Shown: positions 3,599 to 61,916, counted from the first letter of the stretch. The stretch: DNA of 64,000 nucleotides from Bacteroidales bacterium (GCA_045606865.1 JAZUST010000145.1:9359-73358), one strand, 5' to 3'. Made by a program: numbers and translations. Notes: a model not told the origin generated them from the sequence alone.

Positions 3599-3620
3599 CC
3601 ATAAAATATAGGTTTTAAGG

Positions 3621-3659
3621 AGAGGGTGTTAATTTAGGTTAGCATCCTCTTCTTCTATT
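3621..3659 (+). terminator. probable intrinsic terminator
   Basis: Stem AGAGGGTG/CATCCTCT (one G-U pair) followed by TCTTCTATT. Confidence 0.45.
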
Positions 3660-3667
3660 ATTGTGAG

Positions 3668-4174
3668 GTGTTAAATATAGCACAAAAATGTAAATTACTT
3701 GCTCTTGATACCTCGTCAAGTAAGACGGGTTGGGCAATGTTTGAGAATGCAAAATATAAGAAATCGGGCGTTATAAACTTTGATACAAATGAGTGTAAAA
3801 AAAAATATAAAGGTAATTCAGAGCAACGCCTTGAAGATATGTGTTTGGCTATTATCAATCTATTAAGAGAGTATAAGCCGGACATTATCGTAATTGAAAA
3901 ATTGAACGTCGGCAGGAATATGGTTGCCGTAAGACATCTCGCTAAAGTGATTGGCGTAGTATACTGCTATTCCATTTTAAACAACTGTTTTTATTATGAG
4001 ATACAGGCAAGCCAATGGCGTAGTCAGATTGGAATACAGGCAAAGAATAGAAAACGTGAAGAGTTCAAACAATTAGCTATTGAATACGTAAAAAATACCC
4101 TCGGCATGTATGTAACGGATGATGAAGCTGATAGTATTTGTGCGGGGATTGGATATATAAAAATGTTTACATAG
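3668..4174 (+). CDS. RuvC-like Holliday-junction resolvase (phage/lactococcal type)
   Basis: ...LLALDTSSSKTGWAMF... (catalytic Asp), ...IIVIEKLNVGRN..., ...TDDEADSICAGIGY... match the RuvC-fold acidic tetrad layout. The start codon is uncertain (GTG 3668). Confidence 0.8.
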   Translation: MLNIAQKCKLLALDTSSSKTGWAMFENAKYKKSGVINFDTNECKKKYKGNSEQRLEDMCLAIINLLREYKPDIIVIEKLNVGRNMVAVRHLAKVIGVVYCYSILNNCFYYEIQASQWRSQIGIQAKNRKREEFKQLAIEYVKNTLGMYVTDDEADSICAGIGYIKMFT

Positions 4175-4192
4175 AAAGAGGGTGTATCAAAA

Positions 4193-4747
4193 TTGGTTTT
4201 AAAAATGTCAAAAGACAAAACCTTAGTGATTACAAAGTCAGGCACTACATATAAAAATGAGCACAACGCCGAGACAATAAAAATTATCATGCCAAAACAA
4301 ATTGACAACAAAGACTTAAGGCAGTGTTCAATTTGGCTGAGTTTTATGAATGAAGAAAAACTTGGCAAAGCAATTGATGTGTCTGAGTTTTTAACAGACT
4401 ACTCCTCTACTTACTACTATATTGAAATACCAATGGATAACATTTTTACCTATGTTGCTGGTAAGATTCAAATATGGTTAAAGTTGTTGGATAGTCAAAC
4501 TGAAATGGTTGATTTCACCAATTATGTTACTCACTATATCCACAAGCATCCTGACGAAGAACTTGAGGGCGAAATAACTGAGCAGGAACGGTCTGTATTA
4601 GAAAGTCTGACATTTAAACTTGATGCAACCTCTATTCAGTTAGGTGAAGTAACCGCTAAGGTTGAGGATATTGATGAATATGTAAGCGAGTTACAAGAGG
4701 GCGAAGTATTATTAGTACAGCATAGCAATGATGAAAACGAAGAATAA
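4193..4747 (+). CDS. hypothetical protein
   Basis: TTG 4193 (AGAGGGTG SD 8 nt upstream) or ATG 4205. 184 aa with an acidic C-terminus. TAA stop. Confidence 0.7.
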   Translation: MVLKMSKDKTLVITKSGTTYKNEHNAETIKIIMPKQIDNKDLRQCSIWLSFMNEEKLGKAIDVSEFLTDYSSTYYYIEIPMDNIFTYVAGKIQIWLKLLDSQTEMVDFTNYVTHYIHKHPDEELEGEITEQERSVLESLTFKLDATSIQLGEVTAKVEDIDEYVSELQEGEVLLVQHSNDENEE

Positions 4748-4827
4748 ACTGGTTGAAATGCCAGTTTTATCTGGATTTTAAAAAACTTTAATAATAAAAA
4801 TATAAAGCAGAAATGAGGATTTAATTT

Positions 4828-5064
4828 ATGATTAATTATTTTAGAATGAAAATGGCAGAATGGAAAGTTAAAGGTCTGTTCTATGGTACGATTGCTTCTT
4901 TTGTAGATAACAAGTCTGGCAGACTACAGACAATTTTGAATTTGATTGATTCTGTTAAAGGATTGACAGGAGAAGAACTGAGAACAGAATTTATTTCTGG
5001 TCTTGCAGGAATTATACACGATGAGGCTGAATTGGCTCGTCAGAATGAGACCAATGAAGAGTAA
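4828..5064 (+). CDS. hypothetical protein
   Basis: ATG after a GAGGA SD. 78 aa. TAA stop. Confidence 0.65.
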   Translation: MINYFRMKMAEWKVKGLFYGTIASFVDNKSGRLQTILNLIDSVKGLTGEELRTEFISGLAGIIHDEAELARQNETNEE

Positions 5065-5102
5065 TGAAATGTCTCTTTTATAGTGAAAATTGAGGTGATT
5101 TG

Positions 5103-5528
5103 ATGGCGAGAACATTTTCAACAGTTGTCGAGTTACAAAAACATATGGAATCTGCTTGTCGTAAAGCCGTAGAAAATGCTTGTAATAGGCTTCTCGGACG
5201 ATTACAGGAAATACTTGATGAAGAATACTATGATGTTTTTGAGCCTGAGCGTTATAAACGTACTATGTCTTTCTGGAGGTCGGCTACGACAAAAATGTTA
5301 GATAATACTTGCGGTCAAGTATTTATGAATCCCGATGTTATGCATTATAAAGCAGGTTGGTCAGGTAAAGCACAGATTGAGTCAGCCGCCAAAGGTTTAC
5401 ATGGTGGTTGGGATTATGAAGGTGTTAGCGACCATAAATATTGGGAAGTTTTTATAGCATACTGTGAAAAAAATGCACTAAAAATACTCAAAGAGGAATT
5501 AAGGGCGCAAGGGATTCCGATTAAATAG
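5103..5528 (+). CDS. hypothetical virion protein (weak HK97-gp10-like resemblance)
   Basis: ATG 4-5 nt after a GAGGTGA SD. ...YDVFEPERYKRTMSFWRS... resembles the Y..P..Y.RTG.L motif of gp10-type tail-completion proteins. Confidence 0.7.
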   Translation: MARTFSTVVELQKHMESACRKAVENACNRLLGRLQEILDEEYYDVFEPERYKRTMSFWRSATTKMLDNTCGQVFMNPDVMHYKAGWSGKAQIESAAKGLHGGWDYEGVSDHKYWEVFIAYCEKNALKILKEELRAQGIPIK

Positions 5529-5552
5529 AGAATAATATATCGAGGTGATATT

Positions 5553-5738
5553 GTGACGAAAAAGCAAGAGAAAGAATTGGAAAATAAAATCAAAGTTATT
5601 ATTGATGAACAGCGTATACAAGGTATAAAAGCTGGAGCAAAAGGAATTTTGGGCGCTGTCTTAAAAATGTGTAATGATGGCAAGACAGTTGCGGATATAA
5701 AAGAGTTTTGTGAAAAAAGTCTTGGCGCTACGAAATAA
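5553..5738 (+). CDS. hypothetical small protein
   Basis: GTG start after a GAGGTGA SD. 61 aa. TAA stop. Followed by a strong terminator. Confidence 0.6.
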   Translation: MTKKQEKELENKIKVIIDEQRIQGIKAGAKGILGAVLKMCNDGKTVADIKEFCEKSLGATK

Positions 5739-5774
5739 TTTCCCCGTTTATAAATCTTAATATGAAACTACCTA

Positions 5775-5803
5775 CTCCCTTTTTCTAATGGGAGGTTTTT
5801 TTT
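5775..5803 (+). terminator. intrinsic terminator
   Basis: CTCCC/GGGAG stem with a 10-nt loop, followed by TTTTTTTT. Confidence 0.7.
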
Positions 5804-5837
5804 ATACAAATTTTTAGAAAAGGAGGAGAATAATTAT

Positions 5838-7271
5838 ATGGATGATTTTATAGTCAAACTGATTGCGCGGTTAGATGCGAGCAAAACAAAGACCGATTTA
5901 AAAAGTATCGAATCTGACCTTAATGCGAGAGGAATAAACTTAAAAGCAAGTTTAGATACTGCTACCACAAAACAAGAATTAAAAAATTTAGCATCTCAGT
6001 TACAACAAATCCTTAAATCACAAGGTTTGGATATCGGAACCGACAAAATACTCGCAGGAATAAATCAAGTAAAACGAGAAGCGGCGAGTATGAAGAAAGT
6101 TCTTAGTGAAACAGATAAAGTTTCGGCTTTGACGAAGTTTCAAAATTATATGACTAAGAACACCAATATAACAAAGGCTGCAAAAAATCAAATTTTTGAG
6201 TGGATAAGAACGATAGAGAGTGCTGACGAATTAACTCGTGATGACTTAAACAATATTAACGCCCAGTTTAAGCAATTAGATACCAATATGCGAATGTCTG
6301 GTAGATTAGGTTTATCGTTTGGTGATTCGATTAAGAAAGGTATTGCTTCTTTCTCTGCTTGGCTTCCGGCAACAACAATTGTAATGGGCACTATCAATAC
6401 CATCAAGACAGGGATTAGGGATGTAAGAGAATTTGATGATTCTTTGCTTGAACTTTCTAAGGTCTCTGATTTATCAGCAGATGGACTTGCAAGAGTAACC
6501 GATGAGGCATATAAACTTGGTGATCGTGTTGGTAGAACAGGAAGGCAAGTTGTTGATGCGGTTACAGAATTTAAGCGTGCTGGGTTTGAATTAAATGACA
6601 GTATGGACATGGCTGAGTCTGCATTAGTTATGACTAATGTTGCTGAAGGTATTGATGATACAGCGGATGCTGCTGGAACTCTTATCTCTGTACTTAAGGG
6701 TTATAATATGGCTGAATCTGAGACAATGAACATTGTTGATAAGATTAACCAAGTATCAAATACAAGCCCTATTGGATTTGACCAAATTGCCGAAGGTCTT
6801 GAAAGAACTGCTGGCACAATGGCTCAAAGTGGTACGACGATTGACGAAACAATTGGTTTGATTACCGCCGGTTATGCACAACTTCGTAACGTTGAGAAAG
6901 TTTCTACTTCGCTCATCACACTGTCTGCAAGACTTCGTGGCGTTGATGAGGATGGTAATAAGATAGATGGCTTATCAGCAGAACTCCAAGATAGTTTTGG
7001 TAAGATTGGCGTTGCTATTGAAGACGCTGACGGTAATTTGAGAAGTATTTATGCCATTGCAAAAGATTATGCCGAAGTGCTTCCTACCCTATCAAGTAAG
7101 CAGAAGCAGTATTACGCCGAGCTTGCTGCTGGTAAACGTAATGTAACCACTTGGAACGCTATTACCCAACAGTTTCAAGATGCTGAACATGCCGTTGCAC
7201 AGTCATTAAATTCGGTTGGTAGTGCGGCTGAAGAAAATGAAAAATACTTAAAAAGTGTAAGTGGTAGAGTT
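5838..7271 (+). CDS. tail tape-measure protein, coding segment 1 of 3 (3' boundary approximate, about +/-10 nt)
   Basis: AAGGAGGAG SD. TP901-type TMP core (...SLLELSKVSDLSADGLARVTDEAYKLG..., ...VTEFKRAGF..., ...GFDQIAEGLERTAGTMAQSG...). TMP-like sequence ends at ...ENEKYLKSVSGR(V). The remaining 26 codons to the TAG at 7347 lie in intron RNA. Confidence 0.85.
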
Positions 7272-7650
7272 TACCACGTTATGCAGAAATGTATAACAAG
7301 AATGAATTTAATTGCAGGTAATCCCTTAGAGCCTTGCACCACAATATAGGAGAAATCACTATATGATGGTTTTAAAACGTAAGGATTGGGTGTTCGTGCA
7401 GCCAAGTACCCTAACGTATCCCGTAAAACATACGGTGTTTAGTCGAGGGTAAAGGTTCAACGACTAGATTCACGTCGAGTTGTAGACAAGAGAATAAGGG
7501 TGGAAATCCCGAATATCTACAACAACAATCGTAGGGCGCAATCGCAAATGGCGTGGGTGAAAATCCCTTAAATCGAAAAGGTCACTCTTAACACGTAATG
7601 GTGAAGATGAAGAAATAGTCTAAACTCTATTGAAAGGTAGAGATGTTGTT
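7272..7650 (+). ncRNA. group I ribozyme core of intron 1
   Basis: Dense, comparatively G+C-rich non-coding stretch with the R/S elements and several hairpins. No SD-led ORF. Confidence 0.65.
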
Positions 7651-7706
7651 GATTATATGAGGAATTGATTACTCCTCGCTTATTATTTATAAAAGGAATG
7701 AAATAA

Positions 7707-7895
7707 TTGAATAACAAGTATAAGTGTGAATCTGTACGCTTGTGCAGATTTTTATACTCGCTTGGTTTTGATAAAGAATCAAAACTTGATGAAAACAAAA
7801 AAGAATATTGGTTATTTGAAAGAAGTCCTGACTTACAAAAGTCTTTGGATTTCTTTTTTATTATGAGAAAGAAAAAAGAGAGAATATATAAATAG
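7707..7895 (+). CDS. small intron-borne ORF, DUF5659-like (tentative)
   Basis: TTG start after AAAGGAA. ...CRFLYSLGFDKES...KKEYWLFERSPDLQKSLDFF... resembles the 2599..2793 product type. Confidence 0.4.
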   Translation: MNNKYKCESVRLCRFLYSLGFDKESKLDENKKEYWLFERSPDLQKSLDFFFIMRKKKERIYK

Positions 7896-7921
7896 GTGTA
7901 TTTCAAGGAGCGAATGATTGT

Positions 7922-10420
7922 ATGACAATTATACAAGATGATTTAATGAAAAAGATTATAGAAGATTATAATGCTGGTTTAAGTCCAAACAAATTGAGCG
8001 AAAAATATAATGATTTTTCACCATATCAAATCCGAGAAAATTTGAAGAAGCGCGGTGTTTTTCGGACGCTTTATTTTACAGACGATGAGTTAAAAAGCAT
8101 CAAAGAAGATTTCGAATCTGGTCTTACACTAAAACAGTTGGTGCAAAAATATCATAGACCGGAAGAAACCATAAGAAAAAAATTACAATCCTTTGGTTTG
8201 TATGATGCAAGAGTTCAGTTGCCCTACAGTAATGAAGAAGTAGCTATTTTAGAAAAATACTACCCACTTGGCGATTGGGATAACCTTTTTAAATTTTTGC
8301 CTAATAGAGACAGGACTTCAATCTCAACAAAAGCATCTAAATTAGGGATATCACAAACAGATTGGAATTGGGACGAATGCCGAGTGAAAGAAGTGTTAAA
8401 TAAAAAGGGTTATACATTGCTAACGAAATTTGAGAATATCAAAAACAAGCATAAACTAATTGACTCTAATGGGTATCTGTATTGCTGTACATTAATGGGA
8501 CTTATTTATGATAAGAGTTTGCCTTTAATATTTTCACAAGATAATATTTATACGATTGATAATATTAAAACTTATATAAAACTAAACAATATTAATTGTG
8601 AATTGGTTTCTAACACTTATACAAATAATACATCGGATTTAAGTTGGAAGTGTCGTTGTGGAAAAATTTTTCTTTGCCCGTGGGCAAGGTTTCAAGCAGG
8701 GAAACATCAATGCAACGAATGCTCAGAGATAGAGTCGTTTGATAAGATTTCTTTCTCAATTGATGATGTGGAAAAAATGATAGAGGGTAAACCTTATAAA
8801 ATGATAAGAGATACTTTTACGAGGCTATCAAATGGTTTTACTGCAATAACAAATGACGGATATTATGTGTTGGTTGATAAAAATAATATATACAAAAACA
8901 CAATGCCAGAGATATTTCACACCAACAACCCTTACACAATAGACAATATAAAACATTATATTGAGATCAATGGTATTCGTACAAAATTAATATCTACTAC
9001 TTATGATAATAACAGCAAAAAACTAAAATGGGAGTGTGGCTGTTGTGGTAAAGTATTTGATAGAGGATGGAACTCATTTTTAAATGGTGCAACAGAGTGT
9101 TTAAATTGCTCTTCTACTAAGCGTGGTATAAATAGTAGAATTTCAGCTTTTGAAATTAAAGAATTTATTGAAAGCAACGGTTATTATTTGGGTGAAAATA
9201 TTGAGGATATTGCAATATCCAATAAGAAGTTTTCTATTTATGATGATGAAGGATATTTTTATGAAACAACATGGAGTCATATGAAAAGCCATAAAACTCC
9301 AGAAAAATTTCATCCTAACAACAAACATACTATTAACAATATTAATCATTATATGGACTTACATAGAAATGGCGAATATCAATGCATTAGCAAAATATAT
9401 AAAGCGAATGATGGGATTATGAAATTCAAACACACTCCTTGCGGCTGTGAGTTCAAAGCAACATGGACAGAAATGCAAGGAAAGTTGATGTTGAATAAAA
9501 AAGATAGATATTTTAAACAATGTCCTAATTGTAATACTAATAAAACTGAATCTATACATGCATCAACATTAAAGCAAGTATTTTTACACGAGCATCCTGA
9601 TACTATTACCGAAGATAAAAGCTGTATAAATCCTAAAACCAACAGACCTCTTCCGACCGACATTGTTAATCATAGATTGAGAATTGCCATTGAGATTCAA
9701 AGTGACTATCATGACACAGAAGAAAGAAAGTTGGTTGACACATTTAAAAAGGAATTTTGGCTTGACAAAGGATACGCTTTTTATGACCCAGATATAAGGG
9801 ATTATTCTATTTTAGAAATGGTTCAAATATTTTTCCCAAATATATCAAGCATACCAAAGTATGTAGATTTCAAATTCTCGGACTGTATAGATTTTAGGAA
9901 AGTACAAAAACTGTTAAACGGCGGGCGTACGATATCAGAAATTTCAAAAATACTAAACATAAAAAAGGGTACTATACAAGGGTTTATCAATAATAAAAAG
10001 GTTATTTTACCGAAAGATTATAAAAGGAAGGTTTTTAATATCAAACCAATAGTACGACTTTCTAAAAGTGGAGAATTTATGGAAAGGTTTGAGTCTTTAT
10101 ATGAGATTAACAACAAAGGGTTTGCTTCGGGAACTGTTGGACGAGTTTTAAGGGGAAAGCAGTCGTTTTCATATGATAGTTTTTGGGTTTATGAAGAAGA
10201 TTATCTATGTGAAAATTATAAAATACCTGAAATAGAGTTTGATAAATTCACACTGCCCGTAGATAAATATGATATGAACAATGTTTTCATTTGTAGTTAC
10301 ACATCGATATATGAAGCAGAGTTAGATTCTAAATCAAATAGAAATGAGATATATCGTGTGGCAACAGGAAATAGAAAATCATGCAAAGATGAAAAGTGGA
10401 AATTGCATAAAGTAGCCTAA
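7922..10420 (+). CDS. intron-encoded homing-endonuclease-like protein: HTH repeats, three zinc-ribbon modules, PD-(D/E)XK (EDxHD/Vsr-like) nuclease core, NUMOD-like C-terminal repeats
   Basis: 832 aa. There are three ~110-aa repeats, each ending in C.CG...W..F..G...C..C. The putative nuclease core is ...PLPTDIVNHRLRIAIEIQSDYHD.... The C-terminus has two ...F.S.YE......G....VLRG... type modules typical of HEG DNA-binding domains. Confidence 0.8.
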   Translation: MTIIQDDLMKKIIEDYNAGLSPNKLSEKYNDFSPYQIRENLKKRGVFRTLYFTDDELKSIKEDFESGLTLKQLVQKYHRPEETIRKKLQSFGLYDARVQLPYSNEEVAILEKYYPLGDWDNLFKFLPNRDRTSISTKASKLGISQTDWNWDECRVKEVLNKKGYTLLTKFENIKNKHKLIDSNGYLYCCTLMGLIYDKSLPLIFSQDNIYTIDNIKTYIKLNNINCELVSNTYTNNTSDLSWKCRCGKIFLCPWARFQAGKHQCNECSEIESFDKISFSIDDVEKMIEGKPYKMIRDTFTRLSNGFTAITNDGYYVLVDKNNIYKNTMPEIFHTNNPYTIDNIKHYIEINGIRTKLISTTYDNNSKKLKWECGCCGKVFDRGWNSFLNGATECLNCSSTKRGINSRISAFEIKEFIESNGYYLGENIEDIAISNKKFSIYDDEGYFYETTWSHMKSHKTPEKFHPNNKHTINNINHYMDLHRNGEYQCISKIYKANDGIMKFKHTPCGCEFKATWTEMQGKLMLNKKDRYFKQCPNCNTNKTESIHASTLKQVFLHEHPDTITEDKSCINPKTNRPLPTDIVNHRLRIAIEIQSDYHDTEERKLVDTFKKEFWLDKGYAFYDPDIRDYSILEMVQIFFPNISSIPKYVDFKFSDCIDFRKVQKLLNGGRTISEISKILNIKKGTIQGFINNKKVILPKDYKRKVFNIKPIVRLSKSGEFMERFESLYEINNKGFASGTVGRVLRGKQSFSYDSFWVYEEDYLCENYKIPEIEFDKFTLPVDKYDMNNVFICSYTSIYEAELDSKSNRNEIYRVATGNRKSCKDEKWKLHKVA

Positions 10421-10483
10421 TCAACTACTGATATACATAATCAACAACTGGTTGAATTTTGCGAATTCAATTGAATATATTTG

Positions 10484-10677
10484 AAAGTTACAATGTTTGA
10501 AAGTGCTGTTGAAGACTTGTCAAACAGTGCAATAGATTCAGAATTTATAAAGGGTATAATAGAACTTGGAACAACAGGCGTTAAAGGTCTTGATGCTTTT
10601 ATTGAAAAGTTTGGAATGTTAACAACACTCCTTGGTGCTGGTGGCATAATTGCTGGCATCAAAAACGTTGGTGGACT
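10484..10677 (+). CDS. tail tape-measure protein, coding segment 2 of 3 (both boundaries approximate)
   Basis: Frame open only from 10475, with no SD or start of its own. ...FESAVEDLSNSAIDSEFIKGIIELGTTGVKGLDAFIEKFGMLTTLLGAGGIIAGIKNVGG... continues the TMP pattern. Confidence 0.7.
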
Positions 10678-11250
10678 CAAATTCAGGGAGTCTTTGTTTT
10701 GAATTGCCTGACCTATCATTGTATAGAATAATCGGTCTATACAACAAATGGGAATACTCTAGCGTTTTAAAATAAATAGAGATGGGTTATATGGTCTACT
10801 CAGTAGACATCTCCGACAACTGGAGGTCTGGGACGTGACATAGAATTATAAGGCTACAATAGAAAATTGGAAACGATAAACTATGAATGCAGGTATGAAA
10901 AGTACATAAAAACATATAATTCGGTTTCTGGGCGTAAAGTCAAAGAACTATATGCGACTCATAATTATAATATCGTAAAGTCACTATCAGCAGATAAATC
11001 ACCTAAGTCATTTGATATGGTGAAATCTCAACGACTACCATCCATCTTATAGCAACACGATAGATTGCTATAGGAACGTATAGTCTGTACTGGCACCGAA
11101 TATGAGGCGGTGTAAAGTTGTAGTGCTATCTTATCAGCATATTTGTGGAACTCTCATTGCCGGAGTTGATAAGAAGGCAATAGAACATGAATTTCATTGG
11201 CAGAATTTAGACATAAAAATAAACACTCAACGATGAGTGTTTCGTGGCAT
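10678..11250 (+). ncRNA. group I ribozyme core of intron 2
   Basis: R/S elements 50 nt apart and P9-like hairpins (ATTGCC...GGCAAT about 11155-11185; AAACACTCA/TGAGTGTTT about 11220-11243). Only a spurious 61-codon ORF is present. Confidence 0.6.
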
Positions 11251-11320
11251 AATATAAACATTTGTGCGCATTATGAATACAAAGTTAAGCAAAATGTATT
11301 GTTTTAGTAGCCTTTTGGTA

Positions 11321-11349
11321 TTGACAAGTGTAAAGCAATTTGGTATAAT
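11321..11349 (+). promoter_or_regulatory. consensus sigma-A-type promoter
   Basis: TTGACA (11321-11326), a 17-nt spacer, then TGgTATAAT (-10 at 11344-11349 with an extended -10 TG). Confidence 0.75.
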
Positions 11350-11355
11350 ACATAT

Positions 11356-11473
11356 AGAAAAAGACAAAAGAGACGGAGATATCGGTCAAATATCTCAATG
11401 GTTTCCCTTTTTGTTTATATGGTTACATAAAATGTAGAAACCACTTCAACGGAGGAAATTGAGGTGGTTTTTA
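11356..11473 (+). ncRNA. candidate ~115-nt sRNA (antitoxin-like), runs from the promoter to the shared terminator
   Basis: Bounded by the consensus promoter and the hairpin+T5 terminator. No SD-led ORF. Its 5' part AAAGACAAAAGAGAC (11361-11375) can pair with the peptide mRNA leader. Confidence 0.5.
11436..11473. terminator. bidirectional intrinsic terminator shared by the convergent sRNA and peptide transcripts
   Basis: 9-bp stem CCACTTCAA/TTGAGGTGG (one G-U pair) with A-rich 5' and T5 3' flanks, so a U-tract is present on both strands. Confidence 0.7.
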
Positions 11474-11480
11474 TATGTTT

Positions 11481-11549
11481 TTATCTCGGTTTTGCAATAA
11501 GGAGCAATACCAGAGTTACAATTAATACGTAGTAGAAATCGTAATTCAT
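11481..11549 (-). CDS. 22-aa hydrophobic peptide MNYDFYYVLIVTLVLLLIAKPR (type I toxin-like)
   Basis: GAAAGGAGG SD 5 nt upstream of the ATG. TAA stop. Single TM-like core with a basic C-terminus. About 110-nt leader in which CCTTTC can sequester the SD. Confidence 0.55.
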   Translation of the reverse strand: MNYDFYYVLIVTLVLLLIAKPR

Positions 11550-11669
11550 ATCGACCTCCTTTCTGCCACCTACGGGGAGATGGACTTGCGAAAGGAAAAC
11601 CACCCTAACCATTCTTACAAAGACCAAAAGAAACTCAGAACAATTAAGCGTCTCTAATGTCCAATGAGC

Positions 11670-11698
11670 ATTATACCATTATTGTCGAATATTGTCAA
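11670..11698 (-). promoter_or_regulatory. consensus sigma-A-type promoter for the peptide mRNA
   Basis: On the minus strand: TTGACA (11698-11693), a 17-nt spacer, then TGgTATAAT (-10 at 11675-11670). Confidence 0.75.
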
Positions 11699-11702
11699 TA
11701 TA

Positions 11703-11730
11703 AAGACACCTTCGGGTGTCTTATTTTTAT
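11703..11730. terminator. intrinsic terminator (strong on +, usable on -)
   Basis: AAGACACC-TTCG-GGTGTCTT followed by ATTTTTAT on the + strand. The minus-strand flank is TTATATT. Confidence 0.75.
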
Positions 11731-11746
11731 GCCCGTTAATAAAACG

Positions 11747-11773
11747 ATAGCACCCTACTTGGGTGCTATTTTG
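11747..11773. terminator. intrinsic terminator (ends the minus-strand cassette; also followed by T-rich sequence on +)
   Basis: ATAGCACCC-TACTT-GGGTGCTAT. The minus-strand flank is CGTTTTATT and the plus-strand flank is TTTG. Confidence 0.7.
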
Positions 11774-11816
11774 ATAAGAATTATGTATAGGAATTTTAAC
11801 GAGAGGATTTGATTTG

Positions 11817-11957
11817 ATGAAGCATCACTATATCAGAAAAATTAAACTTACAGATGATATAACGCTCGTGATATATGGATATACTCGTTTTGGCAAAGAC
11901 CATAATGAGTCTTGTCATTTAAAGTTCAAAAACGGCGAAATATATCCTATTGTTTAG
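11817..11957 (+). CDS. possible 46-aa ORF (MKHHYIRKIKLTDDITLVIYGY...)
   Basis: ATG 9 nt after GAGAGGA. TAG stop. Overlaps the 3' end of the convergent gene by 11 nt. No family recognised. Confidence 0.3.
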   Translation: MKHHYIRKIKLTDDITLVIYGYTRFGKDHNESCHLKFKNGEIYPIV

Positions 11958-12360
11958 GTGTCATTTGTATCCAGTCTAAAATTAATGATAACAACGCTAT
12001 CCCCAATGCAAAAAGAGAAATGACGAGAGCCGCCCACTTGTGAAAACCTTCTTTGCGTTCTTTGGCTCTTTTCTCTTTTTGGTGCTGAATATAATAATAG
12101 GCATCAAGGGTTATAAGATACTTGCCCGTATATTCATATTCGGCAGGTTCAATAAAATTGCCATCTTTATCCTTGATTGCATCTCTAACTTTAAATTGAT
12201 GTAGTTTGACAAACTCTATTGTACGAAGAATGTCTGCTACTTGTTTGTTTTTGATGTTAAAAGGTATATCCATCTTGGCACGTTTAATTGCTTTATATTG
12301 TTCAGGTGGCAAATATATATCTTCTGGGTGTATTTGGTCTGGTGTTTTAAGTACGCTCAT
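11947..12360 (-). CDS. C-terminally membrane-anchored protein, unknown function (intron cargo)
   Basis: ATG after AGGAGAGGATAC. 137 aa. Single C-terminal TM helix (WAALVISLFALGIALLSLILDWI). TAG stop. Confidence 0.75.
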   Translation of the reverse strand: MSVLKTPDQIHPEDIYLPPEQYKAIKRAKMDIPFNIKNKQVADILRTIEFVKLHQFKVRDAIKDKDGNFIEPAEYEYTGKYLITLDAYYYIQHQKEKRAKERKEGFHKWAALVISLFALGIALLSLILDWIQMTPKQ

Positions 12361-12395
12361 ATGTATCCTCTCCTATTGAGTTTGTGGGTTGGTTA

Positions 12396-12713
12396 TTAAA
12401 AATCACTCTTACAACTATTACAATGCCATTGTTTTGTGGTTTTACCCAATGCAAAGATACCCCATAATGCTACACTACCTGCTTTTGATAAGCCTGAGAT
12501 TTTCTTGCAATCGGTTGACTTGCAGTATGGACAGGTTATTGTTGGGGTTGAGGGTTGGGGTTTTGAATTTGATGGCACATGTGCATCTGGAGGGTATTCT
12601 ATTTTTTCTGAATTTTCTATCGTTTTAAGTTTATAATTACACTTTACACAATATTGGTCGTAATCTCTATACACTTTATTACAAACAGGACACTGTTTCA
12701 TAGTATTACACAT
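12396..12713 (-). CDS. double zinc-ribbon protein, unknown function (intron cargo)
   Basis: N-terminal CPVC...CVKC ribbon, Pro/Ser linker, then C-terminal CPYC...(GSVALWGIFALG)...CNSC module. Start is ATG 12713 or 12701. Confidence 0.75.
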   Translation of the reverse strand: MCNTMKQCPVCNKVYRDYDQYCVKCNYKLKTIENSEKIEYPPDAHVPSNSKPQPSTPTITCPYCKSTDCKKISGLSKAGSVALWGIFALGKTTKQWHCNSCKSDF

Positions 12714-12733
12714 CCTTATTTATTTTTTTTATT

Positions 12734-12762
12734 ATTATAACATATTATAGACGAATTTTCAA
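12734..12762 (-). promoter_or_regulatory. sigma-A-type promoter of the opposite-strand cassette
   Basis: On the minus strand: TTGAAA (12762-12757), a 17-nt spacer, then TATAAT (12739-12734). Lies about 20-35 nt upstream of the 12396..12713 start. Confidence 0.65.
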
Positions 12763-12877
12763 TATAATTACAATTTTTGGTATCCTTTTTATTATAGTTT
12801 TTGCTGTCCACAAGCATTTAATATCATTATAGTACGAAAATCAAAGCAATTTTTAAAATAGATAACATTAAGGATGG

Positions 12878-15800
12878 TCTTCAAGTCACATCATGGCAAG
12901 CATTAAGAGGTGGTATTGTAGCCACCACAAAAGCTATGGGGGCATGGCTTATTTCTAATCCAATGGGTTGGATTATCCTTTTGGGCGGAACAATCGCTGC
13001 CACCGTTGGATTAGTTGACTTATTTACAACTTCAGTAGAGGAGCATAGAGAAAAACTTGAAAGCCTGAAGTCCGAATATTCTGATATAAAATCCGAGTTG
13101 GATGGTTTAAAAGGTGAGTTAGACGGCACTCAAAGTAGAATAAATGAACTTGAAAACAAAGGGAAACTCACATTTACCGAAGCCGAAGAGTTAAACAATT
13201 TAAGAAAACAAAATAACGAATTACAACGTAGTATTGACTTATTAGAACTTCAGAAAAAAACAAAAAGTAAAGAGACCAATAATCAGTTTATTGAGACGAT
13301 GAACTCAGATATTGAACAAGAACTTTATACTAGAAATGAGAATGGTGAAGTCGTTCAATATATGCCTATGAGCGGTCAAACGGCTACCGATGATAACGAA
13401 GCAGATTATATAACTCAACGCTTTAAAGATTTAGAAAAGTTGAGGGACAAATTATCTTCTGCGTCTACAGAAGCTGAAAAAGAACGTATAAAAAGGCAGA
13501 TTAAAGGCATAGAAGATTATTTTGTTCAAAAAAACAAAGATTTTACCGAAACTGCTAAAGGCATAGACTATATTCAAAATCCTACCACAGAGGATGATAA
13601 AAAAGTCAATAAATGGCTCGACTATATCAACGACTTCCAAGATAAAATGGCTGTTGCTATGGATGGTGAAAATGCTAAAGAAAATGCTTTTAATCGACTT
13701 GTGGATAACTGGAAATTCGATGAAGCATTAAATCCATTACAAAAGCTCGGCAAAGAGGGTAAAGTTACTTTAGATGAACTCAAAAAGAGAATGGACGACC
13801 CTGTTTTTGTTAAGTTTGTCAACAAATTAAAAGATATAGGTTTTATTTCTGATACGACAGATGGTAGTTTAAGATTCCTTGCAAATGCTTTTAATGGAAC
13901 TACTCAGGCAGCCAGAAGTTATGTAAATCAATTATCAGACTTATCTTCTATTAAAAAGTTTATTAGTAATATTGATGAGGAAGCAAAAGCTCTTGGAACA
14001 ACCAAAGAAGCTTTGGGTGACCTTGTACAAGAACATATTTTGTTTAACAATACCGGATTAGATACAAGTGGTCAAATTTCTGCCTTACAGTTGTTGGGTT
14101 CTACTATAGATGGACTTTCTGGAAAAACAACGCGTCTAATTTCTCTTTTAAAGTATGCTGCTGGAGATTTCTCTGGAAGCAAGCTATCGGCTGGCACTGT
14201 TTACGATGCGGATGGAAACGCAATACATAGAACCGAAGATGAGATAAGAAATATTAATGCAAGACGACAAGGAAGTGCTCAGGCTGAATTAGATAAAATG
14301 AAAAAGGATTGGGAAAAGATTCAGGGTTTATTTAAAGAGGATGGTAATGAGAATCCCCCACCTTATACATCCGGCGATGACAAAGACTCCTCTTCCTCCA
14401 AAAATTCTGCTCTCGATAACTATCTCAAAGATGCTGAAAATCGTTACAAAATTCATCAAGACGAAACCGAGTACATCAACGACCTTAACTATGCACTAAA
14501 CAACCTAGTTAAAACAGAAGATGAGCGTCTTGATGTAACGGGCAAAATAAACGAGGCATATCGTGACCTTGCTGATAATCGCATTAAAGACCTTGAACAT
14601 CAAATTGATTTAACCAAGGAACTTAAAGGCGAAAATGCTGATGTAACATCTCAATACAAAGAAATTCAGAAAGTTGCAATTGAAGAAGCCGAAAGACTTC
14701 GTGCCATGGGCTATGACAATAATTCAAATGAAATACAGGCTCTTCAAAAGACTTGGTGGGATGCCGAAAATAGTAAACTTGACTTTTACTCTAAGCAACA
14801 TGAAATAATTCTTCGTGATATAGAGCACGCTCGTGACATGGTGCTTAATGCCGATGAAGATGCGAATGTAACTTCGTATTATAAACAACTCCAAGACGAA
14901 TATCATAGAGAAGCTGAAAGACTTCGTGCATTAGACCCTGAAAAATACAAAGAAGACATTCAGGAACTACAGCAGTTATGGTGGGATGTTCAGAACGAGA
15001 TGCTTGATTATAACAAGCAGGTTGTAGAAGACTTCCTTGATGAACTCCAAACCAAACTTGATGACTCTTACGACATTCGTATTAGTCGTCTAAATTCACA
15101 GTCCTCCCTCCTCTCAAGTCACTTCAACATAGTTAACGCAATTGCAGAGGAACAGCACAATCTTAACAAAGAGCTACTTGAGGCTGAAACAATTGGTGCT
15201 AAAATGAGTGAGCAAGAAAGAGAATCTTTACTTACTCGTGCCGAGCATAACAAACTTTCAGGAAAACTCAGTAATATAATGCTCGATATAACCGACTTAC
15301 AAAGCGATTATATGCGTGACCTTGAAAAAGCAACCGAGGACACGATTGAAGAAGTTACAAATCAGTATGAGCGTCAGTATGAACTGAAGATGAAAGAGTA
15401 TGAGATTATTAAGGCTGAACTAAACTTAATTAAAAAGCAACAAATACTTGAAAATACTCAAAATGAAAAATCGGTTAGAACTTGGAATGGCTCTAGTTGG
15501 ATATATGAAGCAAACCTTCAAGATGTATTAGATGCTCAGGAAGAAGTAGAAAATGCTAAGTATGAACTTGCAAGAGCGCAAGCTGAAGAGGCTCAACAAG
15601 TAGCTTTAAACGCTATAGACGCTAATGCTGATGCTTTAGAAACAGAAAAGAATAAACTAACATCTGTTATAGAAGATATGGCAGAGAGAATGGATGGTTC
15701 TGGTAAAGATATTACATCTATGTTAAAAACTATTGCCGAAACAGATTTACCTACATTTGATGCAATAATTCAAAGTATGGGTGAAAGCATTAAGGAAGCA

Positions 15801-16388
15801 TTAAATTTATCTGATGACGATATTAATGCTTTTCGCACTAGCAGTAACTTTACAATTAACCCCCTTGCAGAAATGAAGAAAAATTCTAGTGCATGGCATA
15901 CAGCAACAACACAAGAAGAGAGAGATTCTTTAGTAAGTGCAAATAAAGTTTATGCTAGAATGCTTGGTCTTGAGTATGAAGAATCTACAGGCAGATGGAA
16001 AAAGAAAGATGGCACTTATGCTTATGCATCTGGAACTAAAAATGCTAAAAAAGGCGTTGGCTTATTTGATGAAAAAGGCTTTGGTTCTGAAGTCGTTCTT
16101 ACAAATGATGGTATACTTACACAGTTTAATGGTGGCGAGAGAGTATTTTCACCTGAAATGGCTGATAGGTTATGGGAAATGGCACAGAAAAATAATATTT
16201 TAACCCCGTCAATAAGACAGCCTGACTTAAGCAATGTAACTACAATTGAAGAGAGAATTAACAATGCGATAAATAACGCTATAACCAATAATGCTTTCGG
16301 TGATACATACATGATTAAAGATGTACAAGTAAATGATTCTAACAACGCAGTCAGAGGATTTATGAACTACTTGAAAAAGATAGTTTAG
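12878..16388 (+). CDS. tail tape-measure protein, coding segment 3 of 3 (5' boundary approximate)
   Basis: Frame open from 12831. The first ATG (12936) has no SD. A TM-like segment (WLISNPMGWIILLGGTIAATVGLV) is followed by more than 1100 aa of coiled coil with internal repeats. TAG stop. Confidence 0.85.
14634..15020 (+). repeat. in-frame tandem repeat (75-codon period, about 1.7 copies) inside the TMP
   Basis: GAAAGACTTCGTGC is identical at 14691-14704 and 14916-14929 (225-nt offset). Protein repeat is ...NVTS.YK..Q....EAERLRA...........IQ.LQ..WWD..N..LD.... Confidence 0.8.
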
Positions 16389-35030: not shown

Positions 35031-35107
35031 TGGCTGACCCTGTTGGATTCGAACCAACGGAATGCAGGAGTCAAAGTCCTGTGCCTTACCGACTTGGCTA
35101 AGGGTCA
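35031..35107 (-). tRNA. tRNA-Gln (anticodon UUG), CCA encoded
   Basis: Minus strand TGACCCT-TA-GCCAAGTCGGTAAGGC-A-CAGGA-CTTTGAC-TCCTG-CATTC-GTTGG-TTCGAAT-CCAAC-AGGGTCA-G-CCA. Full cloverleaf, closely like bacterial tRNA-Gln. Confidence 0.9.
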
Positions 35108-35242: not shown

Positions 35243-35336
35243 TGGTGGGATAGATCAGAGTCGAACTGATAACCAAGGGTATTCAACAGCAATATCCCTT
35301 CACGCTGTAAAGCTCTGCCGATTGAGCTACTATCCC
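35243..35336 (-). tRNA. 94-nt tRNA-like gene with canonical acceptor, D and T arms but a non-canonical 41-nt anticodon/variable region; identity undetermined
   Basis: GGGATAG-TA-GCTC-AATCGGCA-GAGC-[41 nt]-ATCAG-TTCGACT-CTGAT-CTATCCC-A-CCA. The 41 nt fold either as ACAGC/GCTGT with a 13-nt loop plus a long variable arm, or as a 9-bp hairpin. Confidence 0.6.
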
Positions 35337-59516: not shown

Positions 59517-60349
59517 TAAATCACAACCTTTGCTCTTCTGTTACGAACAGGTCTATTTGCTTCATCCTCATATAGATAAGAAATTTCCTTTGCTATATGA
59601 TAACAAGCAGAATCGGCACGTCCGGGGCGAAGCATGTCACACTTTACATAGTTATTTGCTTGAGCAATAAGAATATTTGGCATAACTTTTTCCAAAGCCT
59701 TAGTCAAAATCATTTCGTCTGCATTTGGATTTTCTTCTAAAAAGGTTGATAAACCTGTAATGATAGCACTTGAAAGAGAATTTTTATCACCGTACCAAGC
59801 ATTTCTCAAAATTCTAAGTACAGTTTCTACTCTTTCCATGCCAAACATTTTTTGCATTTTAACAAACTTACTAACAGCACCTATAAGATTGTCGTCTTTA
59901 GTGCCATTATTCTTGTTGTAATCAAAGCGGTATTTTCTAAACATAGCAACTAATTCAATTGCTTCCTTATCTTTCTCTTCCACTCTACCATGAAATACTT
60001 GGTTTGCAGTAAGCTGAGTCCTTCCTGTATTAAGAAGTACAAAACGATAGCATTCTTCCTCATATGTTAATCCCGTTAAAACCTGACAAAGCATTTCTTT
60101 AAATCCAAGTTTTTTTAGAGCTTCAATTCTATGTTGTGCATCAATACCCCAAAAGTCCCCACCTCTAAAACTTACCAAACCGACACCTATAATATCAGGA
60201 ACAAAGTTTTTAATCATCTTGTTGACCTTAGACGGCTTAACCTCTCTTTGATATTCTGCAAATTTAATATTCTTAAGCGGTATTCTTTTTAATTCCAGTT
60301 CAGGCAACCTTAATATCGCTCCTTTTGATTCGTTTCTATTAAATAACAT
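59516..60349 (-). CDS. ParB/Srx-fold (ParB N-terminal-like) domain protein
   Basis: ...LKRIPLKNIKFAEYQREVKPSKVNKM...FWGIDAQHRIEALKKLG... (the D.QHR ParB-type motif). 277 aa. Overlaps the upstream gene by 11 nt. Confidence 0.75.
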   Translation of the reverse strand: MLFNRNESKGAILRLPELELKRIPLKNIKFAEYQREVKPSKVNKMIKNFVPDIIGVGLVSFRGGDFWGIDAQHRIEALKKLGFKEMLCQVLTGLTYEEECYRFVLLNTGRTQLTANQVFHGRVEEKDKEAIELVAMFRKYRFDYNKNNGTKDDNLIGAVSKFVKMQKMFGMERVETVLRILRNAWYGDKNSLSSAIITGLSTFLEENPNADEMILTKALEKVMPNILIAQANNYVKCDMLRPGRADSACYHIAKEISYLYEDEANRPVRNRRAKVVI

Positions 60350-61916
60350 TATTATCTACTCCTTTGTTAATAAAATTTTTTATACTTTGAATAATCTCAT
60401 TTTGTTTTAAAATTATTGTACTATTAGAATTAAAATCATTAGCGTCATCACTATCAATTTCAACAAAAGCAGATTCTTTAAATGATGTAAACCAGTCATC
60501 TACATCAATTTTGATTTCATTCGCATCAATATACTTAATAGCATACATATATAATGGAAGATTTATCTCATTCTCGTCTATTCCATTATCGATAACTATG
60601 GATTTATAATATTTGCAATCCTCAATTAATTTGTTGTCTCCATGTTTTTTAAGCCAATCATCCATTTTTAACAAAGTTTCTGTGTCAAAGTTACAATAAG
60701 GGCAATCAGATATGAGCATAAGTGATTGATAGGCGACTTCATCTGATACAAATTCTTGCGCCAAATCTTCAAACTCCTCGTCAGTAATACCTTGTGCTGA
60801 TTCTAAATCTTGTATTGATATTTGAAAATACTCACACATAAGTTTGCTTAAGTGTTCTACTCTTGCAATGACGATATTTTTATCTTTTGTGGATTTATCT
60901 TCCATCAGTTCATCAAAAGACTTTCCTTCTATTTGCTTTTCGTGTAATTCTTCTCTAAACGAGGTTAAAAAATCATTGAAATAGCAATCTTCAATATTAG
61001 AATTAATAAACCTTGAAAATAATGTTATAAATAAGAATGCATTTTTCTTATTCTTCTTAACAAATAGGGCAATATTATCCTCATCAACACAAGCTTCAAG
61101 TCTGTTTATCATTTCTTCATAAGCAGTAAAATCGTCCGCTACAGCATTATCACGAATATAGTCGCAGGTCTTATCGTAGTTACCATTATATTTGTCAAAG
61201 AATTTTCCAAGCATTAAAGACTCAGTAATCACTCTATTAATTGAACCACTATTAATATCTGAAACAGTGTAGTTATCCTCAAAGAAAGGAAGTGTTGCAA
61301 TACTCTTTACAAGTCTTGCATATCTTTCCCCAAGTCTTATGATGCCCTTTTCTTCTTTATTTGCAGGTTTACCTTCGTTGTAACGGAGAATATGATAAGC
61401 AATATCCTCAGAGGAGCAGTTGATATATTGTACAATCTTAAAGGCATAATCAAGAAACCTTTCCTGAAGTTCTTCTGGTAACTGGCAAAACTTTTTACCT
61501 CTTATGTCAAATTCTCTTTTCTCATAAAGCGGAAATCCTTCATCGTCAATAGAAATTTCTCCATTCTCATCCAAGATAGGAGTATGATATGTAATCATAT
61601 ATCTTCTTATGGCACGACTTATTTTGTCATGTTTTTGGACACCTTTATAATACATATATAAATTGGTGCATCTTTGCTTTCCGTCTAAGTCCCATATAAT
61701 CGGAATGCCATTAACAACCTGTTCTGCAAAGACAAGTTCAGGAATTGGATTTCCCTGCAAGACATCGGAGATTAAGTTTCCAACCATTACCCCGTTCCAT
61801 CTTTCAGATTCTCTCTGTAACGGATGATCAAAACATATTGTTTTTTTATCCATTTTCTTTATAATAGAACCAACACTAAGTTTAATATCTTTACTTTTTT
61901 CCATCGTTTGTGCCAT
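60339..61916 (-). CDS. DUF262-domain protein (ParB-like NTPase fold) without a recognisable DUF1524/HNH nuclease
   Basis: ...FDHPLQRESERWNGVMVGNLISDVLQGNPIPELVF...IWDLDGKQRCTNL... is the DUF262 signature. 525 aa. No H..H/N nuclease motif seen in the C-terminal half. Confidence 0.8.
   Translation of the reverse strand: MAQTMEKSKDIKLSVGSIIKKMDKKTICFDHPLQRESERWNGVMVGNLISDVLQGNPIPELVFAEQVVNGIPIIWDLDGKQRCTNLYMYYKGVQKHDKISRAIRRYMITYHTPILDENGEISIDDEGFPLYEKREFDIRGKKFCQLPEELQERFLDYAFKIVQYINCSSEDIAYHILRYNEGKPANKEEKGIIRLGERYARLVKSIATLPFFEDNYTVSDINSGSINRVITESLMLGKFFDKYNGNYDKTCDYIRDNAVADDFTAYEEMINRLEACVDEDNIALFVKKNKKNAFLFITLFSRFINSNIEDCYFNDFLTSFREELHEKQIEGKSFDELMEDKSTKDKNIVIARVEHLSKLMCEYFQISIQDLESAQGITDEEFEDLAQEFVSDEVAYQSLMLISDCPYCNFDTETLLKMDDWLKKHGDNKLIEDCKYYKSIVIDNGIDENEINLPLYMYAIKYIDANEIKIDVDDWFTSFKESAFVEIDSDDANDFNSNSTIILKQNEIIQSIKNFINKGVDNNVI

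Follow-up and report, generated by a model that had tools for sequence, protein, structure and literature searches.

Positions 5838 to 16388 of a 64,000-nucleotide (nt) stretch from a Bacteroidales bacterium (GCA_045606865.1, JAZUST010000145.1:9359-73358; this whole stretch is the window of what follows) probably constitute a single tape-measure gene of an SPbeta-like temperate Lachnospiraceae phage, divided into three exons by two group I-type introns and spliced to specify a tape-measure protein (TMP) of 1722 amino acids (aa). A doubly split tape-measure gene was already known in 2008 (Tourasse and Kolsto 2008; PMC2504315), whereas the initial annotation of this DNA was not aware of a well-described one; the new part is an intron at a conserved site that carries cargo. 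The predicted layout is as follows.

5838..7265, + strand: exon 1, aa 1-476, ending ...SVSG (GGU); contiguous with exon 2 in the homologous proteins P0001 and P0006 and in the DNA of the related locus L001
7266..10483, + strand: intron 1, 3218 nt, group I with an open reading frame (ORF); matched by RF00028 and absent at the same point in L001
10484..10672, + strand: exon 2, 63 aa, KVTMFES...GIKNVG, ending GGU
10673..12836, + strand: intron 2, 2164 nt, consisting of a 5′ group I-type ribozyme, a cargo island and a short 3′ end
12837..16388, + strand: exon 3, 1183 aa, KIKAIFKIDNIKDGLQVTSW... to the stop, in phase with exon 2

A tape-measure frame in three segments

The ORF at 5838..7349 (+ strand, 503 aa) contains the TP901-type tape-measure core that had been recognized in it initially (PF10145, PhageMin_Tail, E 6e-24 in a Pfam search), and membership in this type is borne out by that domain, by the great length of the protein and by the tail genes YomU, YomV, YomW and YomX found upstream in relatives. 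Homology with relatives stops at ...SVSG (GGT, 7263-7265), after which, as also described before, the translation turns into junk, 28 codons of it, up to the stop at 7349. Tape-measure sequence restarts at 10484 (KVTMFESAVEDL...) within a stretch open over 10481..10702, for which the only start codon is an upstream in-frame TTG that lacks a Shine-Dalgarno sequence; the second break follows ...GIKNVG (10672), and the frame stops at 10702. The third segment is open from 12822 (not from 12831, as first given) to 16388, and its first ATG, at 12936, is indeed without a Shine-Dalgarno sequence. Since the homologues of this segment align upstream of that codon, in a motif SW..LG.SI, ATG 12936 cannot be the start, and coding begins before any start codon.

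When the three segments are joined, the resulting 1722-aa protein aligns as one segment, through both junctions, with two uninterrupted relatives: the 2771-aa TMP of the Hungatella metagenome-assembled genome L015 (residues 54-697, E 6e-111) and the annotated 1508-aa TMP of the cultured Enterocloster phage PMBT24 (residues 135-625, E 5e-59). With a slash marking each junction, the predicted joined RNA reads ...AGUGGU/AAAGUUACA at 7265/10484 and ...ACGUUGGU/AAAAUCAAAGC at 10672/12837, and the peptide predicted across the spliced junction is ...AGIKNVGKIKAIF...

The conceptual junction-spanning protein was used as the query in a search of 5.8 billion proteins, which returned more than 120 homologues, 120 of them listed. 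Two of these, P0001 and P0006 (98% and 89% identical to the query), read through the first gap as ...YLNSVSGKVTMFESAVEDL..., and the DNA of L001 at the same point is AGT GGT AAG GTT ACA ATG, with no intron; the first gap is therefore an insertion without a counterpart in close relatives. At the second gap the similarity is lost just after G-x-K-N-x-G in all of the 100+ homologues examined, each of which ends in a tail of 0-25 residues belonging to one of several unrelated classes, so this break must be old and widespread. A group II intron, an intein and a split intein were rejected by direct reading, with no dedicated test run: the frames are broken by stops after read-through tails of 2-25 aa, there are no GUGYG and AY intron ends, and no reverse-transcriptase ORF is present.

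Among the genes of the window, which comes from a temperate SPbeta-like phage, are those for a large serine recombinase, a DNA polymerase III alpha subunit, a primase-helicase, a ribonucleotide reductase and a C5 methylase; the YomN, YomU, YomV, YomW, YomX and YonB families adjoin the tape-measure gene in relatives; and the genome matches are to Lachnospiraceae and other Clostridia. Megablast of the region against a phage collection found no near-identical DNA, a distant search of that collection with the intron 2 core gave no match, and a protein-pattern scan of IMG/VR viral contigs found no relatives.

Ends, helices and cores of the two introns

A regular-expression scan of both strands of the 64 kb placed the conserved R and S elements exactly where the initial annotation had put them, at 7454-7469 and 7610-7625 in intron 1 and at 11025-11040 and 11075-11090 in intron 2; there were 12 loose matches in all, and the full CAACGACTA ... 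ATAGTCT signature occurs only in the two introns. That annotation's central proposal, two group I-type introns in one tape-measure gene, is supported by RF00028 and homology for the first gap and by covariation of helices P1 and P10 for the second. The features of intron 1 are these.

7261..7277, + strand: P1, exon GUGGU (7261-65) with guide ACCAC (7273-77), from the minimum-free-energy fold and the Rfam alignment
7922..10420, + strand: intron-1 ORF, 832 aa, with AAGGAG 12 nt upstream and with helix-turn-helix and zinc-ribbon repeats in its product
10421..10483, + strand: 3′ segment, ending AUUGAAUAUAUUUG with terminal G10483; the annotated intron of Staphylococcus phage Terranova ends AUUGAAUAUAUCG

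Given 7240-7720 (481 nt) as input and with the search filters relaxed, the Rfam group I model RF00028 matches 7255-7642 over its full length (model positions 1-253), scoring 53.6 bits (E 6e-13; gathering score 50), and the alignment takes in P1 and P9 as well as the P, Q, R and S elements. The whole window and a 6-kb input gave no group I match with default filters; long inputs also missed an annotated control intron, a filter effect that the short input resolved for intron 1. The stretch 7285-7663 is 72% identical to one in the fecal phage MT835469, 7523-7647 is 71% identical to the annotated endolysin intron of Terranova, and the 3′ end (10423-10480) is 75% identical to positions 2606-2662 of the Terranova intron, a continuation of the same intron. 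Judged by its sequence, intron 1 is a mobile group I intron of the Staphylococcus and Bacillus phage kind, and its long R-to-S spacing (140 nt) suggests type IA2. Seven junction pairs would restore the frame; only 7265/10484 combines an exon-final U, an intron-final G and the reading SVSG/KVTM, and excision there reproduces the uninterrupted allele, SVSG/KVTMFES, of P0001, P0006 and L001.

The product of the intron-1 ORF is predicted to be homing-endonuclease-like: it matches PHROG 559, 'HNH endonuclease', with E 1.7e-34, and finds no family in Pfam, PDB or PADLOC. Its placement in the I-Bth0305I (EDxHD) family, a guess, was unsupported by the PDB sequence search and was given up. Intron 1 appears to be a recent arrival, because the close relatives lack it and because its read-through tail is found in none of the 120 homologues listed.

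Intron 1 opens with 15 nt (7266-7280, AGAGTTTACCACGTT) that are similar to the opening 14 nt of exon 2 (10484-10497, AAAGTTACAATGTT). This direct repeat, 11/15, includes the guide ACCAC and may be a trace of intron acquisition or may be chance. The likeness between the two junctions had been read initially as the mark of one guide forming P1 and P10, an argument that is invalid: in intron 1 the likeness is this repeat, and in intron 2 it lies 40 nt inside exon 3.

The features that define intron 2 are as follows.

10694..10712, + strand: internal guide, strands of P1 and P10, from pair tables; coordinated exon and guide changes in L019, L002 and L004
10781..11091, + strand: core helices, assigned by hand, in the same element order as in L018
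11143..11149, + strand: UUGUGGA of a possible cargo-closing helix, with partner UCCACAA at 12807-13
12831..12836, + strand: 3′ end, AGUAC (3′ strand of P9.0) and terminal G12836

The second gap is supported as a group I-type intron because it has a P1 with a U·G pair, a P10, a P9.0 and a terminal G, and because P1 and P10 covary across the five downstream variants that were compared at this site (window and L001; L017 and L018; L019; L002 and L003; L004 and L005). In every variant P1 joins the last six bases of the exon to a guide that lies 30-50 nt inside the gap, and the pair at the junction is U·G. The window pairs GUUGGU (10667-72) with GCC(U)GAC (10706-12), six pairs around one bulge and U10672·G10706 at the splice site; P1 helices of 6 bp without a bulge occur in the relatives, which pair GUUGGU with GCCAAC (L018), GUCGGU with GCCGAC (L019), UUGGGU with GCCCAA (L002) and UAGAU with GUCUA (L004), and in L018, L019 and L002 this is the unique six-pair candidate within the first 100 nt of the gap. 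The exon change from GUU to GUC in L019 is matched by A to G in its guide, and L002 and L004 have a quite different P1 and P10.

The P10 strand consists of the 12 bases directly 5′ of the guide G and is complementary to the sequence with which the downstream reading frame starts. The window has UUGUUUUGAAUU (10694-10705) facing exon-3 nt 12838-49, paired at 11/12 positions; 10-12 of the 12 pair in the window, L001, L018 and L019. The pairing is kept by paired changes in L019 (GAUGU with an ACAUC-type partner), and the sequences of L002 and L004 are unrelated to the others. As 3′ splice sites we took the points, preceded by G, where the downstream frame starts in phase with exon 2. Every G in about 11 kb downstream (about 1900 sites) was then ranked by the energy of its duplex with the guide flank, and the proposed site came first in L001, L018 and L019, second in L002, third in L004 and ninth in the window. 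The energy ranking replaced a scan for contiguous pairs with G·U allowed, which was non-discriminating because the guide is U-rich. P9.0 is formed over 5-6 bp by GUACU or GUGCUA, one or two bases after P7, and the bases that lead up to the terminal G; the window has GUACU with AGUAC, followed by G12836. UAGUACG stands immediately before the splice site in the window, L018 and L019, and AGUACG does in L001. A conserved motif, ATAGAACATGAATTT, goes with introns at this site. In the window, L001, L018 and L019 both P10 and P9.0 are longer than is usual for group I introns.

The last junction had been put at about 10677/12878, and we correct it to 10672/12837, with the 3′ splice site 41 nt upstream. 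U10677 pairs with an A in the P1-extension hairpin, which covaries as a hairpin (GGACU with AGUCU versus GUGGC with GCCAC), and 12878 has neither a P10 nor a P9.0.

An alignment of the site-2 cores by MAFFT misaligned P7, and the helices were therefore tabulated by hand. P3 is 10781-87 with 11040-46, placed two bases after P7 and abutting P8 (a direct reading of the sequence); P4, tentatively, is 10927-30 with 10991-94; P6 is 10999-11003 with 11019-23; P7 is 11033-37 with 11081-85; P8 is a 10-bp hairpin, 11046-55 with 11065-74, followed by a J8/7 of 6 nt; and the 5′ strand of P9.0 is 11087-91. In this assignment P3, P6, P7, P8 and J8/7 occur in canonical order, and P4 and P5 rest on weak P- and Q-like motifs shared with L019. 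The core of L018 has a textbook P (GCGGG), Q (UCCGC), a P7 with a bulged A and a J7/3 of AA. The 5′ 525 nt of intron 2 are 97.7% identical to L001, whereas exon 1 is only 81% identical, and 4/12 of the differences fall in one 5-bp hairpin (10810-14 with 10822-26) with pairing kept; the core thus appears to be under structural constraint. The UUGUGGA and UCCACAA motifs recur in L001, in L017 and L018, and in L019 (5 bp only), a conservation without covariation. The insertion site, after G-x-K-N-x-G, is old and conserved.

Other interruptions were seen among the relatives. The unannotated 176-kb fecal phage MT835469 (GenBank; 125006-137392, our locus L007) has its tape-measure gene in at least three or four pieces, with two intron-1-type cores (4405-4495 and 5996-6387 of the locus), two intron ORFs (380 and 476 aa) and the same break, after G-x-K-N-x-x-G. 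A third intron site occurs in P0069, P0078 and P0082-P0096: at L020 11585-11732 the break follows YYAELAAG (GGU) and reads YSMINRVSSNVQKCA*, and the RNA downstream, which has P1 GCUGGU and GUUAGC and, as its P element, AAUUGCUGGAAAAGC, is similar to the window's intron 1. In a more distant clade of Lachnospiraceae and other Clostridia (L008-L016) the break comes after ...SGFG, and the N-terminal tape-measure ORF is followed by a conserved non-coding stretch of 0.5-0.9 kb (62-82% identity) that contains the P element AAUAUGCUGGGAAG and a hairpin with covariation; it probably represents a different intron family at the equivalent site. Outside the tape-measure gene, L002 has its anaerobic ribonucleotide reductase (NRDD) in two pieces (3605-6615, - strand) with an HNH_3/NUMOD1 ORF between them, which is how an intron that carries a homing endonuclease usually looks.

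The cargo island and its expression

The ribozyme core of intron 2 occupies its first 0.5 kb. Between the core and the 3′ end lies 1.6 kb of cargo, a multi-gene island that went unmentioned in the initial annotation. This gap has no long + strand ORF; it has two on the - strand (11947..12360 and 12396..12713). Its features are these.

11321..11730, both strands: convergent unit with + promoter 11321-49, - promoter 11698-11670 and + terminator 11703-22
11549..11481, - strand: 22-aa hydrophobic peptide, MNYDFYYVLIVTLVLLLIAKPR, behind AGGAGG
11947..12360, - strand: cargo gene, 137 aa, product with a C-terminal membrane helix; - terminator at 11769-11747
12396..12713, - strand: cargo gene, 105-aa zinc-ribbon protein, last gene before the 3′ splice site

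Both promoters of the convergent unit match the consensus at 12/12 positions with an extended TG and stand about 300 nt apart; the unit has terminators at both ends, and two - strand terminators lie in the cargo. As a whole the unit resembles, by analogy, a type I toxin-antitoxin module, and pieces of it recur in the island of L001. A - strand promoter (12762-12734) is predicted to drive the two antisense ORFs. The 137-aa protein has no family in Pfam, PHROGs, PADLOC or NCBIfam, and the same databases assign no function to the zinc-ribbon protein, whose C-terminal module reads CPxC...KI...G.F...C..C. Homologues of the latter (blastp E 1e-8 to 4e-17) are encoded in L001 (11878-12330), L018 (16720-17187), L002 (18735-19226) and L004 (14106-14480), and, even in introns with unrelated cores, the gene is always antisense and the last one ahead of the 3′ splice site.

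In relatives the cargo bay measures 2.3 to 7.4 kb, and between the predicted splice sites it holds genes for ToxN (with ToxI-like repeats, recognized by eye), the GmrSD N-terminal domain, PemK, an M78 peptidase with helix-turn-helix partners, ANT/Bro-N, a LytTR response regulator and a Big_2 protein. Elsewhere in the window, a 525-aa ORF at 60339-61916 (- strand) has a weak GmrSD N-terminal match (E 3e-7, below the Pfam cut-off), a domain also present in the L018 island. A second tRNA is called by Rfam at 35246-35336 (- strand, 43 bits), with 35 nt in place of the 17-nt anticodon arm; ARAGORN leaves it uncalled and calls only the neighboring tRNA-Gln (35031-35107). The Rfam call may represent a tRNA-like element or a tRNA that carries an insert.

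We speculate, giving the idea a little under an even chance, that the site-2 intron is a 'safe harbour': an intron in an essential structural gene whose peripheral loop serves as a swap hotspot for accessory and defence genes expressed in the lysogen (type I toxin-like, ToxIN, GmrSD, PemK), splicing making inserts of any size harmless and the antisense zinc-ribbon gene being a fixed resident of the 3′ end. In a stronger version, lytic expression of the second half of the TMP may need read-through or trans-splicing across the island. If a group I intron tolerates 2-7 kb of bidirectionally transcribed cargo, the range of such cargo extends beyond homing endonucleases and insertion sequences, and prophages, if the idea is true, would have a concrete mechanism for hiding defence genes inside essential ones.

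We infer the following course of splicing, read-through and cargo expression. In the lysogen, expression of the intron 2 cargo would fall to the host polymerase. During lytic growth a long late transcript would read through it, both introns would then self-splice with guanosine, and the spliced mRNA would be translated into the 1722-aa protein. Read-through is proposed because the late genes of SPbeta form one operon transcribed by the highly processive phage polymerase YonO (PMC5467207).

Several observations weigh against a gene that is spliced at both gaps. A U·G wobble formed at the 5′ splice site is critical and nearly universal in group I introns (PMC4227781), and intron 1 lacks it: U7265 pairs with A7273, and 7266-7290 contains no alternative guide with a G. 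In Terranova the guide, equally far from the 5′ splice site, reads GCCC, and the pair is U·G. The U-A pair, a natural test of the U·G rule, may slow or block the first splicing step. In intron 2, the P1 of the window has 3+3 pairs around its bulge, P4 and P5 are uncertain with about 139 nt between P3 and P4, and RF00028 finds no match in the core at E <= 10 (10640-11260, 621 nt). The Rfam check proposed for both gaps thus succeeded with the short input for intron 1 and failed for intron 2. RF00028 misses the L018 core too, canonical as that core is by hand analysis, so the model is insensitive to the site-2 lineage. Finally, the intrinsic + strand terminator at 11703-22 lies in the path of the late transcript, and no YonO-type polymerase gene was found among the window's ten large ORFs scanned against Pfam.

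One of three other explanations could apply. (i) The gene may be disabled in this genome, a recently arrived intron 1 with U-A for U·G in its P1 being unable to splice and the prophage being defective. The pairing of U7265 with A7273 would fit, as would the presence of an intron at site 1 in none of the 120 homologues listed, but the three exons and the 832-aa intron ORF are all intact and the rest of intron 1 scores above the family-model threshold; we think this very unlikely. (ii) Intron 2 may be trans-spliced, the upstream transcript ending in the cargo and exon 3 being transcribed separately, with the two RNAs joined through the long P10, P9.0 and the helix of UUGUGGA with UCCACAA. Terminators on the + strand lie within the cargo of both the window (11703-22) and L018, a 12-position P10 and a P9.0 of 5-6 bp could hold two RNAs together, and the cargo of relatives reaches about 7 kb. 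Against this, no convincing or conserved + promoter was found upstream of the 3′ splice site, transcription of SPbeta-type late genes is highly processive, and trans-spliced group I introns are known to us only from a few organelle genes; we regard it as quite improbable. (iii) The second gap may not be spliced at all, exons 1 and 2 encoding one polypeptide and exon 3 another from a non-canonical start, with an accessory-gene hotspot between them and the RNA features a relic. Such an arrangement would suit the break at the same point in every close relative, the cargo's own transcription signals and a core unrecognized by Rfam. Yet exon 3 of the window is preceded by neither a start codon nor a Shine-Dalgarno sequence, and the sole candidates in L001, L018, L002 and L004 are weak TTG or ATG codons without a Shine-Dalgarno sequence; moreover, the exons keep phase in every case, covariation links P1 and P10 to the exon sequences, the core is structurally constrained and uninterrupted homologues exist. 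We consider this alternative unlikely, and continue to favor one spliced gene with three exons.

If that reading is correct, it has a practical side. In this large group of gut phages the tape-measure gene is at present called as two or three unrelated ORFs (MT835469 is an example), and the splice rules given above (P1, P10 and UAGUACG before the 3′ splice site) permit correct gene models.

Comparison with known systems

Full-text searches on introns and their cargo, within the set of papers searched, turned up no report of a phage group I intron whose island of toxin-antitoxin and restriction-type genes is variable and transcribed in both directions. Four systems are close enough to be compared with the tape-measure gene of the window.

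The nearest are the group I introns TMP-IVS1, IVS2 and IVS3, found at three tape-measure sites in Bacillus cereus-group prophages, some genes of which contain two of them (Tourasse and Kolsto 2008; PMC2504315). There, related introns adapt P1 to different sites, and different cores share P1 at one site (PMC2504315). The window is similar in having several group I sites in one tape-measure gene, with some genes doubly interrupted, and in the comparison of the window with L018 at site 2, where different cores share a common P1 and guide. It differs in its host clade, here SPbeta-like phages of Lachnospiraceae, and in its insertion sites; furthermore, the B. cereus-group introns, where they are not compact, contain no more than a homing-endonuclease gene or a remnant of one, and none has been described with multi-gene cargo.

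Intron 1 is most like the Terranova endolysin intron (MH542234), one of the introns of Staphylococcus Twort-like and Bacillus phages: the two are 71% identical over the P7.x-P9 core and 75% over the 3′ end, and they have R and S elements and a 3′-terminal AUUGAAUAUAU..G in common. Unlike that intron, intron 1 sits in a different host gene, has a 2.5-kb ORF inserted after P9 and carries, in its guide, an A at the place of the G that makes U·G in Terranova.

IStrons, in which a group I ribozyme is fused to an IS200/IS605 element, are known from Clostridioides and Bacillus (PMC4227781). Intron 2 shares with them a 5′ ribozyme core, a long 3′ cargo and a distant 3′ splice site. Its cargo, however, is not an insertion sequence: it is without a transposase or TnpB gene, and no transposase family was found in the called cargo ORFs of the window (Pfam, PHROGs, NCBIfam). 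Intron 2 also occupies one conserved homing site rather than many, and its cargo varies, with toxin-antitoxin and restriction-type genes.

The gene itself may be compared with that of YomI, a tape-measure protein and lytic transglycosylase of 2285 aa in the Bacillus phage SPbeta. The two are alike in their neighborhood, with YomN, YomU, YomV, YomW and YomX upstream in relatives of the window, and in the very great length of the TMP, which in L001 has an M23 peptidase in its C-terminal part. The difference is that yomI is a single uninterrupted gene.

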